From a phage: a DNA stretch of 64,000 nt. The translations under genes were made by a program, and so were the position numbers. The notes under the pieces are model-generated. The model saw nothing but the letters and a program-made list of their open reading frames with translations. It was not told the DNA's origin and made no database searches. This document shows, one piece after another, positions 8,929-14,143 of this stretch (position 1 is its first letter; every line of letters begins with the position of its first letter). The DNA lies in NCBI GenBank assembly GCA_017864995.1, contig GCA_017864995.1_4097.1. One strand, given 5' to 3'.

Positions 8929-9277
<349 letters not shown>

Positions 9278-10014: not shown

Positions 10015-10141
<127 letters not shown>

Positions 10142-10148
10142 CCAAAAT

Positions 10149-10249
<101 letters not shown>

Positions 10250-10251
10250 CC

Positions 10252-10412
<161 letters not shown>

Positions 10413-10416
<4 letters not shown>

Positions 10417-10573
10417 CACATGAAGAATGGATGAATGACATTAATTTTAGATATTCGGGTATCGGTAAATGGCTAAAGTATCATTGGGAATTCATTTCAG
10501 AGCCACATCTGTATGATAAACTTATCAACGATCCAGCATATGAAATGTACTTAATTGAACTACTGGTACGAAC

Positions 10574-10577
<4 letters not shown>
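10413..10577 (+). CDS. hypothetical small protein, MTHEEW family (copy 2)
   Basis: 54 aa ORF; ATGA overlap with copy 1; tandem duplicate. Confidence 0.5.
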
Positions 10578-10745
<168 letters not shown>

Positions 10746-10746
10746 G

Positions 10747-11200
<454 letters not shown>

Positions 11201-11228
11201 GTATCTTAATAACAGAAGGTATATTGAA

Positions 11229-11468
11229 ATGAGTAAGTATTTTGTGAGTTATAGTTATAATGTATCACAAAAGGTTCCACGTGGTGATGGAATGGGCTGG
11301 TCATATGATACATATACTTTAAATGAGTCATGTATCATCGAATTGCAAGAAAAAGACCTTGACATTTTAAAAATCAAACAATATATTCTTGATGTTGAAT
11401 TGGCACATCGTACCGACAACTGTCCAGATGTAAACAACGTCAACATCTTAGTACTAACCAAAGTATAA
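11229..11468 (+). CDS. hypothetical protein
   Basis: Track ORF 11199 trimmed to ATG 11229 with GAAGG SD. Confidence 0.55.
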   Translation: MSKYFVSYSYNVSQKVPRGDGMGWSYDTYTLNESCIIELQEKDLDILKIKQYILDVELAHRTDNCPDVNNVNILVLTKV

Positions 11469-11474
11469 GATAAA

Positions 11475-11508
<34 letters not shown>

Positions 11509-11514
11509 GAATTC

Positions 11515-11860
11515 CACAATCAGACGTATATGGTGTAAGTTACGTCGATGTAATCCAGAACAAGATCTCTGGTACTCTAGGAAGTGGTGAATGTTAACCT
11601 AGACGGGTTTGATAATTGGACGATAGGCAATTATTACTTGACTAGCAGGTTTAAACTAGAGGTGACAGTCCTTTACCAAACTGGAAAACCGGATGGACTT
11701 TTATTTAAAAGGGTAAGGCGTGGAAATATGTTTACAGTAGTTGCTTTTAGTAGCCTGTACGCCCCACGTCAAGGTAGCCGAAAGGCAAGTTAAAACGGGT
11801 GGTTATAAAGCTGAATTAACAGCGGCGTTTAAAAGCGTCACCATCCATTTTTTTAATTAA
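11515..11860 (+). ncRNA. candidate structured non-coding RNA (function unknown)
   Basis: About 350 nt driven by promoter at 11480, visibly higher GC than flanks, no convincing ORF (only a GTG-start 69 aa ORF of odd composition), multiple stems; lies in the tRNA region. Confidence 0.3.
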
Positions 11861-11870
11861 AGTTGGTGAT

Positions 11871-12690
<820 letters not shown>

Positions 12691-12703
12691 ATAGGAAATT
12701 AAA

Positions 12704-12889
12704 GTGCAACTTTTAATTCTTTCAATATTGTATATTATTATAATGGTTCCGATATCAATACGTTTAATTACACTTGAACGATTTTTATCGAAACATGGAA
12801 ATAGATCTATGATCTTTGTACCAATCGGGTTGATATTGTTTGGTATATTTTCATTTATAATGGGAATTAACGCTACATTCATTTCATAG
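12704..12889 (+). CDS. small hydrophobic membrane protein
   Basis: 61 aa ORF with GTG start; two hydrophobic segments. Confidence 0.4.
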   Translation: MQLLILSILYIIIMVPISIRLITLERFLSKHGNRSMIFVPIGLILFGIFSFIMGINATFIS

Positions 12890-12898
12890 GAAACAAAT

Positions 12899-13566
<668 letters not shown>

Positions 13567-13585
13567 AGAGGTACTTCGAGTATGC

Positions 13586-13916
<331 letters not shown>

Positions 13917-13967
13917 GCCTCCCCTCAATGCGAAAGAGTATGGAGACTTGTTGGTTATCTTACTTCT

Positions 13968-14050
<83 letters not shown>

Positions 14051-14053
14051 TCA

Positions 14054-14126
<73 letters not shown>

Positions 14127-14143
14127 CAAAATAAAGGTACACT

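Follow-up and report, generated by a model that had tools for sequence, protein, structure and literature searches.

A 64,000-nucleotide (nt) stretch of phage DNA (NCBI GenBank assembly GCA_017864995.1, contig GCA_017864995.1_4097.1) is called the window here. We found that positions 11511-11854, within its region of transfer RNA (tRNA) genes and on the tRNA strand, hold two independent structured non-coding RNA genes, which we named RNA-A (~11511-11699) and RNA-B (~11717-11854). This conclusion is well supported. The products of both genes are most likely stable trans-acting RNAs released from tRNA-type precursors, as our model of the locus suggests. Taken as a whole, the explanation that joins two RNA genes to action in trans seems probable to us; its gene and fold part is well supported, and its functional part is a best guess. 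The sequence-only reading of this DNA had proposed a single non-coding RNA of ~350 nt driven by a cassette promoter at 11480. A promoter-driven non-coding RNA was borne out by the covariation of RNA-A and by the disruption of the overlapping open reading frame (ORF) in relatives. Instead of one RNA, there are RNA-A (~190 nt) and RNA-B (~135 nt), which are separable in the Alcyoneusvirus phage K64-1 and in the contig L042. According to a BLAST comparison of positions 11470-11870 with phage genomes (97-99.8% identity), the window belongs to a 121Q/PBECO4-type Escherichia coli jumbo phage (Asteriusvirus).

Fold and covariation of RNA-A

RNA-A (11511-11699, + strand) is ~185-190 nt long and consists of seven helices and two pseudoknots. 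A covariance model was built from ten close members with a hand-derived nested structure, and the pseudoknots were left out of it. RNA-A of the window matched the model over its full length with 239.6 bits, and all divergent members were recovered, also at full length, with 73-94 bits (E from 1e-20 to 1e-26). To the 45 base pairs of the structure that was scored belong also the two pseudoknots absent from the model. In an alignment of 16 sequences (A6), 97.0% of the cells pair, versus 24-43% when the 3' partners are slid by 1-3 columns, and 27 of the 45 pairs change on both sides. The second alignment of 16 sequences (A9), with the metagenomic member L055 and Klebsiella phage KP13-16 included, gave 95.7% versus 24-42%, and 31 pairs change on both sides. 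In 500 shuffles of either alignment, the observed pairing values were never reached. Helices Pc, Pd and Pf, together with compensatory changes in them, also came out of an independent run of MAFFT and RNAalifold with seven sequences. Conserved G.U pairs (for example, in 14 of 16 sequences at the base of Pd) work only in the RNA of the + strand. Therefore, the structure belongs to the + strand RNA.

The 5' end of the RNA enters the first pseudoknot, PK1, in which CCAC 11514-11517 pairs with GUGG 11584-11587 in the loop of Pc. This pairing is CCAC/GUGG in the window, GCAC/GUGC in Aeromonas phages, CCUCA/UGAGG in L047 and L057, and CUACA/UGUAG in L055; PK1 is short, with three lineage-specific compensations, and its complementarity in a single sequence is not significant. 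Helix Pa (GACGU 11523-11527 / ACGUC 11542-11546), whose loop carries a conserved GG(Y)GU, changes on both sides in all five pairs. In Pb (CCAG 11555-11558 / CUGG 11569-11572) three of the four pairs are compensatory, and the loop varies from 3 to ~20 nt among homologues. All six pairs of Pc (UCUAGG 11576-11581 / CCUAGA 11598-11603) are compensatory, and its loop holds the 3' strand of PK1. Then comes the junction CGGG(U/A)U (11604-11610), with CGGG invariant in all 16 aligned members, and Pd (11611-11618 / 11628-11635), with seven of eight pairs compensatory and the loop GACGAUA (11619-11625) invariant in 16 of 16. The next segment (11637-11659) consists of an invariant UGAC and of Pe (CUAG 11642-11645 / CUAG 11656-11659), the loop of which opens with an invariant GCAG; Pe occurs as CUAG/CUAG, CAAG/CUUG and CUGG/CCAG.

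The 3' pseudoknot domain (11661-11699) is formed by Pf (GGUGA 11661-11665 / UUACC 11673-11677), by the second pseudoknot, PK2, and by Pg (11681-11684 / 11689-11692), a small hairpin at 11681-11692 between Pf and the 3' strand of PK2. In PK2, AGUCC 11667-11671 of the Pf loop pairs with the tail GGACU 11695-11699. PK2 covaries, with the variants GUCC/GGAC, ACCC/GGGU, GCCC/GGGC, UUCC/GGAA, AUCC/GGAU and UCCC/GGGA, and is strongly supported. Since PK2 is absent from the covariance model, its covariation does not depend on how the sequences were fitted to that model. Between the helices, the nucleotides CGGG, GACGAUA, UGAC, GCAG, GAGGU, ACCA and AUGG are invariant in 16 of 16 sequences, and this unpaired set is likely the functional core of RNA-A.

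Several other pairings and readings were tried and rejected. RNAalifold proposed pairing CUAG 11656-11659 with CUGG 11681-11684; this is broken in L045 and L047, and CUAG/CUAG covaries instead. A pairing of GUUUG in the Pc/Pd junction with CAAAC fails to be compensated in Proteus phages PM2 and 1 and in L047, and one of UGGUG in the loop of Pa with CACCA is unsupported in the Aeromonas phages and in L047. We also rejected a CsrA sponge with GGA motifs, an anticodon decoy and a kissing-loop dimer, as the motifs are not conserved across the RNA-A family. The palindromic loop GUUUAAAC in RNA-A of the window phage is likewise not conserved in the family, and nothing suggests multimers.

RNA-A and RNA-B as separate modules

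The two RNAs are joined in the window by an A/U-rich spacer (11700-11716, + strand). Alignment of K64-1 with the window showed that in this phage the spacer carries a 42-nt insertion, between ~11712 and ~11713, which is a promoter of its own (TTGAAC-17-TATAAT). In L042 the order of genes is tRNA-Leu, RNA-A, cassette promoter, tRNA-Arg, RNA-B. The distributions also differ: the first ~190 nt are 85-100% identical in ~70 phage records of several families, including T4-like, T5-like and Aeromonas phages, and the second half has full matches in Asteriusvirus and Alcyoneusvirus only, plus a 54-nt piece in Kuravirus. Because of the promoter between the modules in K64-1, the tRNA gene between them in L042 and the different phylogenetic distributions, we regard RNA-A and RNA-B as separate modules. 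The single-sequence fold of the whole 346-nt interval (z = -1.71) is uninformative.

Some relatives have lost both RNAs. In Escherichia phage G17 (L056 2501-2600 compared with 11546-11860 of the window), a clean deletion removes RNA-A from about its nucleotide 37 together with all of RNA-B. It fuses the cassette promoter to the homologue of the ORF located at 11871-12242 in the window, and the first ~36 nt of RNA-A remain. The same kind of deletion remnant occurs in phAPEC6 and in two other records of Asteriusvirus. Such natural variants offer a ready comparison without the RNAs.

The RNA-A family in phage tRNA arrays

RNA-A is 85-96% identical to elements within the tRNA arrays of Alcyoneusvirus, the T4-like Bragavirus and the T5-like Novosibvirus, and recognisable homologues occur in Aeromonas T4-like phages, in a Stephanstirmvirinae phage and in metagenomic contigs. 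In Proteus phage PM2 and Shigella phage SdyM_006 (Straboviridae, Bragavirus) it fills the gap between tRNA-Gly and tRNA-Asp, 4 nt past the encoded CCA and ~9 nt before the next tRNA; in SdyM_006 a segD-like gene adjoins the element. It lies between tRNA-Leu and tRNA-Ser both in Proteus phage 1 (Demerecviridae, Novosibvirus) and in Klebsiella phage KP13-16 (Stephanstirmvirinae), and between tRNA-Pro and tRNA-Thr in Aeromonas phage AS-zj (Straboviridae, Emmerichvirinae). In Aeromonas phage 65, also of Emmerichvirinae (Straboviridae), it is found ~90 nt 5' of tRNA-Thr and ~300 nt past tRNA-Pro, partly under an annotated small ORF. In K64-1 and RaK2 (Alcyoneusvirus) RNA-A comes after tRNA-Gly and an RNA-B-like element. 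Among contigs of unknown lineage, L047 (metagenome) has RNA-A between tRNA-Leu and tRNA-Met, the 120-kb IMG/VR contig L055 has a divergent RNA-A 5' of tRNA-Thr, tRNA-Ser and tRNA-Gly, and the metagenomic L045 has two diverged copies flanking tRNA-Arg. The copies in L045 lie on its minus strand at 2102-2285 and 2419-2609, on either side of tRNA-Arg(acg), and show that the module has been duplicated inside a single array.

In every lineage examined, RNA-A has the orientation of the tRNA genes. Its 5' edge lies 2-5 nt past a tRNA CCA in other phages, and in Bragavirus and Novosibvirus the next tRNA begins 9-13 nt downstream. The DNA flanking RNA-A cannot be aligned between lineages, and within 3 kb on either side no protein gene is common across them. 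The absence of a shared neighbouring protein points to a stand-alone RNA, the partner of which is encoded by the host or elsewhere. We found no copy of RNA-A in 5,426 E. coli genomes. A search for its core pattern in 185,579 bacterial and archaeal genomes matched only three Nocardia genomes, which we took as chance. Pattern scans of IMG/VR mostly recovered known isolates, and L055 was the single new member. About 19 IMG/VR pattern matches in contigs of ~35 kb were rejected, as they are located in a protein-coding gene, and nine further matches were rejected by the covariance model. By sequence comparison, RNA-A belongs to a phage-only family that takes up tRNA-like slots of tRNA arrays in at least six phage lineages and has clearly moved between unrelated phages.

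The overlapping reading frame

The + strand of the interval contains only two ORFs, a GTG-start frame of 69 amino acids (aa) at 11584-11793, which crosses the junction between RNA-A and RNA-B, and a TTG-start frame of 39 aa at 11741-11860. The sequence-only reading had called the former implausible, and comparison with relatives agrees. A real small protein gene at 11584-11793, with the conservation due to coding constraint, would fit the fact that the frame is open in 121Q-type genomes and that several GenBank records annotate a hypothetical protein here. The comparative data refute this idea, to which we give practically no credence. The frame has several in-frame stops in K64-1, RaK2 and the metagenomic contig L043. 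Substitutions relative to the window are distributed over the three codon positions as 6/5/5, 8/4/6 and 6/8/7 in these three sequences, that is, with no third-position bias. Single-base insertions and deletions occur within the frame in the close relatives L042, L045b and Pm5461, and they are located in loops of the RNA. The ORFs that overlap RNA-A elsewhere vary in length and boundaries by lineage, and the one in Proteus phage 1 enters the tRNA-Ser gene. In Bragavirus and Novosibvirus the homology does not extend past RNA-A, and a tRNA gene comes next. The GTG "start" itself is the 3' strand of PK1 (11584-11587).

A clear coding signature or conserved homologues of this frame had been named in the sequence-only reading as evidence that would speak against an RNA. 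Neither a codon-position bias nor a Pfam or PHROG family was found: the translation has no match in these databases, and four of the five neighbouring small ORFs tested do match PHROGs. The comparison of homologous sequences shows ORF 11584-11793 to be spurious. One or two 'hypothetical proteins' are annotated over RNA-A and RNA-B in 121Q, K64-1 (RefSeq), WPEC3, JP4, Salmonella SD phages and others, and in Aeromonas phage 65 the GeneMark ORF 65p135 overlaps the 5' part of its RNA-A copy. The protein annotations over this region are probably mis-annotations, and a spurious "hypothetical protein" stands there in dozens of GenBank records.

Structure of RNA-B

The 5' domain of RNA-B (11717-11786, + strand) consists of a three-tier hairpin (11717-11770) and a GNRA hairpin GCC-GAAA-GGC (11777-11786). 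In the minimum free energy (MFE) fold the tiers are GGCGUGG 11717-11723 / CCACGUC 11764-11770, UACAG/CUGUA and GUUGC/GUAGC. The 3' domain (11797-11854, + strand) is a branched, terminator-like hairpin (11797-11846) followed by U7 (11848-11854); its outer stem GGGUGGU/ACCAUCC encloses the inner hairpins GCUG..CAGC and GGCG..CGUC. For positions 11714-11850 the MFE fold coincides with the centroid and with the proposed fold (z = -3.49), and only 1 of 200 shuffles was as stable. Covariation, evaluated on seven sequences only, showed seven pairs that change on both sides, with 95.9% of the cells paired versus 30-46% in the slid controls. Compensatory changes in the 5' domain are found in L042 and in Kuravirus XT18; in Kuravirus phages, 54 nt are 81.5% identical to RNA-B, and the tiered hairpin recurs there in a 790-nt ORF-free region.

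Although the 3' domain has an outer stem of 7 base pairs and U7, a simple terminator scan made no call, because the stem is branched by the two enclosed hairpins. In K64-1, RaK2 and L043, tRNA genes are immediately followed by further copies of the branched 3' module, which fits a role as a terminator or in processing. A paralogue resembling RNA-B fills the gap between tRNA-Gly and RNA-A in Alcyoneusvirus. These elements lie at 1334-1498 and 3092-3150 of L002, which is K64-1, and at 1738-1818 of L043. In the 5' domain, GGCGU 11717-11721 can pair either with CCACGUC 11764-11770 or with the adjacent ACGCC 11759-11763, and both options are kept in L042 (GGUGU / ACACC / CCACAUC). Such alternative pairings may represent a switch or a triple interaction.

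The Kuravirus region mentioned above (Escherichia phage XT18, L053 2013-2803) has no annotated ORF over its 790 nt. It is pieced together from short modules, each of which shares 80-95% identity with segments of N4-like phages (where they lie near tRNA genes), of Shigella phage DS8, of Klebsiella phage Kp4865-1 and of the jumbo phages. It holds the RNA-B-like hairpin at 2501-2554, a GACGATA-containing piece at 2564-2640 and a tRNA-like end (acceptor TTACAGGT.../...ACCTGTAACCA and a T-arm-like hairpin) on which ARAGORN makes no call.

Promoter and genomic surroundings

The cassette promoter upstream of RNA-A (11480-11508, + strand) is of the sigma-70 type. It has a -35 hexamer TTGACT (11480-11485), a 17-nt spacer containing TTCAGTACTG and an extended -10 element TGATATAAT (11500-11508). 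The arrangement TTGACT-17 nt-TATAAT with an upstream TG gives 11 of 12 matches to the consensus, that is, near-consensus hexamers at a spacing within the 16-18 nt of sigma-70 promoters, which confirms the earlier claim of a promoter at this position. The cassette is repeated: the 22-mer TTGACTAAATAGTTCAGTACTG occurs four times in the window, at 10748, 11169, 11480 and 12239, where 0.00 occurrences are expected. The 10-mer TTCAGTACTG is present 21 times versus 0.23 expected and lies within the spacer of all four cassette promoters. Its positions are 9100, 10760, 11181, 11492, 12251, 13401, 13522, 14448, 15391 and 12 more; at 9100, 13401, 13522 and 15391 it forms the full palindrome TTCAGTACTGAA. 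By its sequence, it looks like a candidate operator or regulator-binding site.

The higher G+C content noted earlier for this region also held: it is 0.395-0.42 over 11500-11800, versus 0.28-0.33 in the flanking ORFs, and the tRNA genes have 0.44-0.475. Six tRNA genes spanning 10055-14127 lie on the same strand as the interval 11511-11854. Outside the RNAs, the downstream ORF of 123 aa (11871-12242, + strand) matches phrog_38341 of unknown function. No promoter of its own was found in 11509-11870, and it is probably reached by read-through from the promoter at 11480.

Two more features of the surroundings can be mentioned. Upstream, 10252-10738 contains three tandem overlapping paralogous ORFs of 54 aa (10252-10416, 10413-10577 and 10574-10738), all starting with MTHEEWM, the first of which matches phrog_10970 (unknown function). 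Downstream, ~285 nt at 13381-13665, 5' of a tRNA-Thr pair, lack any plausible ORF on the + strand; their G+C content is 0.38-0.40. This segment is 94-99% conserved among Asteriusvirus and is not common to other phage families; it may be one more non-coding RNA.

Proposed mode of action and alternative explanations

In the scheme that we propose, the host RNA polymerase would start at the promoter 11480-11508 and transcribe RNA-A and then RNA-B. The branched hairpin with U7 at the end of RNA-B would stop most transcripts, and read-through would reach the 123-aa ORF at 11871. In the arrays of other phages, RNA-A would be freed from a polycistronic transcript by the enzymes with which the host processes tRNAs. 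An RNase E-type nuclease would cleave the A/U spacer behind the upstream CCA, RNase P would act on the tRNA that follows, and exonucleases would trim the ends until the pseudoknots stop them. With its 5' end locked into the Pc loop (PK1) and its 3' end into the Pf loop (PK2), RNA-A would accumulate as a stable RNA. It could then act in trans, with the invariant core binding either a protein of the host or a small ligand, and work alongside the phage tRNAs, either sustaining translation or countering host defence directed against tRNA or RNA. Phage tRNA regions are recognised as anti-defence loci (PMC13096335). Because of this, and because RNA-A travels with tRNAs between unrelated phages, our best guess, by analogy and of low confidence, is that RNA-A protects translation or counters RNA- or tRNA-directed defence.

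A number of observations weigh against this interpretation. Folded as a single sequence, RNA-A does not stand out thermodynamically (z = -0.83) and its structure is not recovered, so that the evidence is comparative; the alignment of the nested helices was fitted to the covariance model. The -10 element ends at 11508 and the CCAC of PK1 begins at 11514, which leaves a gap of 5 nt; a transcript starting at A11516 would drop half of PK1. Recent horizontal transfer, rather than constraint, may account for much of the identity (85-96%) seen among enteric phages. Phages of the G17 type lack both RNAs; therefore, RNA-A and RNA-B are dispensable for propagation on the isolation host. Finally, we infer the stability, the end points and the abundance of both RNAs, and nothing points directly to the partner or the function of RNA-A.

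It is conceivable that RNA-A and RNA-B together form a cis-acting leader, similar to a riboswitch or attenuator, that controls the 123-aa ORF through the hairpin 11797-11854. The ORF lacks a promoter of its own, the stem of RNA-B with U7 lies just 5' of the Shine-Dalgarno sequence and the ATG, and the deletion in G17 joins the promoter directly to the ORF. However, in five other lineages a tRNA gene or another promoter, not this ORF, follows RNA-A. What lies downstream varies by lineage (tRNA-Asp, tRNA-Ser, tRNA-Thr, tRNA-Met, a promoter or RNA-B) and no gene is constant; moreover, RNA-A and RNA-B are separable, and the 3' module of RNA-B is also found after tRNA genes. We therefore hold a leader to be quite improbable. 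A similarly small chance is left for RNA-A being a self-cleaving or other catalytic RNA that helps to break up the tRNA precursor, for instance through cleavage at the 5' edge of RNA-A, just past the upstream CCA. Compact folds with two pseudoknots and an unpaired, invariant core are typical of ribozymes, and the 5' edge does lie 2-5 nt past the CCA of a tRNA in several lineages. On the other hand, Rfam searched up to E = 10 yields no ribozyme family, RNase P and RNase E are available from the host anyway, and in the window phage and in L042 RNA-A starts at a promoter, which makes cleavage needless. The pseudoknot topology of RNA-A seems unlike the nested double pseudoknots of the hepatitis delta virus (HDV) and glmS ribozymes and unlike twister, pistol and hatchet, and we counted this against a ribozyme.

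The two remaining alternatives fare worse. That the conservation acts on DNA, for which a site of homing or recombination, a set of operators, or a signal for replication or packaging would come into question, could be suggested by the fact that tRNA regions of T4-like phages are hot spots of homing endonucleases, by the segD-like gene beside the SdyM_006 element and by the clear movement of the element between unrelated phages. This is very improbable: 31 of the 45 pairs are kept by compensatory changes, the opposite strand would have A.C mismatches in place of the conserved G.U pairs, the element always points the same way as the tRNA genes, and no endonuclease gene is consistently near. Hardly any weight can be given to the idea that one of the two RNAs is a degenerate or atypical form of a tRNA, a transfer-messenger RNA (tmRNA), an RNase P RNA or another known housekeeping RNA. 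The location in a tRNA array would agree with this, but ARAGORN makes no call, the housekeeping families of Rfam are not matched in the window with E values as high as 10 or in the six homologous loci, and there is no match in the 5,426 E. coli genomes. The segment GACGGGAUUG resembles the 5' region of tmRNA, and GACUGUCC occurs in M1 RNA; these short similarities to the E. coli sequences are presumably due to chance, and the segments are not conserved in the family.

Two stable RNAs acting in trans thus remain the explanation we prefer. Small stable RNAs in phage tRNA clusters have been known since the work on T4 in the 1970s, and their roles are still unsolved. RNA-A is a tractable case: it is short, has a fold defined by covariation and an invariant core, and is found in culturable phages of E. 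coli, Klebsiella, Proteus, Shigella and Aeromonas, in at least six lineages. As an element that moves with anti-defence tRNA loci, it is a candidate RNA-based factor of counter-defence or host takeover. A more far-reaching version would make RNA-A a new functional class (a double-pseudoknot ribozyme, a sponge for a ligand or second messenger, or a protein decoy), carried as a mobile cassette of tRNA arrays and passed between unrelated virulent phages of Enterobacterales and Aeromonas, where, as the neighbouring phage tRNAs do, it would defeat RNA- or tRNA-directed host defence or reprogram translation; this we put forward only as a speculation, with the chances rather against it.

Comparison with known systems

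An Rfam scan, which had been suggested as a check for this region, was run and matched no family over RNA-A or RNA-B. At the gathering thresholds of Rfam 15, the whole window yielded only tRNAs, and at E up to 10 the segment 11400-11950 gave only three chance matches of 12-18 bits. In six homologous loci, at E up to 5, there was no match over RNA-A. The families thereby covered include RNase P, 6S, SRP and Y RNA-like RNAs, ribozymes, riboswitches, GOLLD and ROOL. ARAGORN found no tRNA or tmRNA in the interval, and we found no description of RNA-A in the literature.

The closest analogues by position are the T4 RNAs rnaC (species 1, 139 nt) and rnaD (species 2, 119 nt), the biological role of which is still unknown (PMC3014915). 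The earlier suggestion that an RNA analogous to these might exist here holds for the position: like RNA-A, they are non-coding RNAs without a known function that lie within a phage tRNA cluster, on the tRNA strand, and abut tRNA genes. It does not hold for ancestry. The RNA-A model does not match rnaC/rnaD (L007 1909-2172) either with default filters or with the filters off, and homology was rejected, as neither sequence nor structure is shared. A T arm like that of tRNAs is present in rnaC, and rnaD has CACCA at its end, whereas RNA-A has neither, is longer and is doubly pseudoknotted. Besides, RNA-A is spread over several phage families, and the T4 RNAs are confined to T4 relatives.

The 3' end of RNA-A may resemble viral tRNA-like structures, such as that of turnip yellow mosaic virus (TYMV), and other stabilising terminal pseudoknots, in which a hairpin loop and the 3'-terminal strand pair as an H-type pseudoknot; we claim no membership in this group. 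Unlike the TYMV-type ends, RNA-A has no 3' CCA, T arm or acceptor mimic, and Pg sits in the pseudoknot loop. In the jumbo phage PA5oct, the highly transcribed non-coding regions ncRNA001 and ncRNA002 were found by RNA-seq, with no function assigned (PMC7318152). PA5oct belongs to the same broad clade as the window phage, but these RNAs are not homologous to RNA-A and lie outside tRNA arrays; our model gave no match in the first 40 kb of its genome. In prophages, most of them from Bacteroidota and Bacillota, the UG27 ncRNA arrays adjoin a gene for a reverse transcriptase (bioRxiv 10.64898/2026.09.22.753630). We compared them by description only and set them aside, since no protein gene is shared beside RNA-A across lineages.

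GOLLD and ROOL RNAs are phage-borne, often lie near tRNA islands and have ornate, pseudoknotted, covarying folds with no known partner or function, and members of GOLLD often exceed 800 nt (bioRxiv 10.1101/2024.12.08.627333). RNA-A is like them in its tRNA-island niche and in its covariation-supported pseudoknots and unlike them in size, ~185 nt compared with these large RNAs. Therefore, we class RNA-A as a new family among the tRNA-island-associated phage RNAs, with which it shares the niche and not the sequence, size or architecture.

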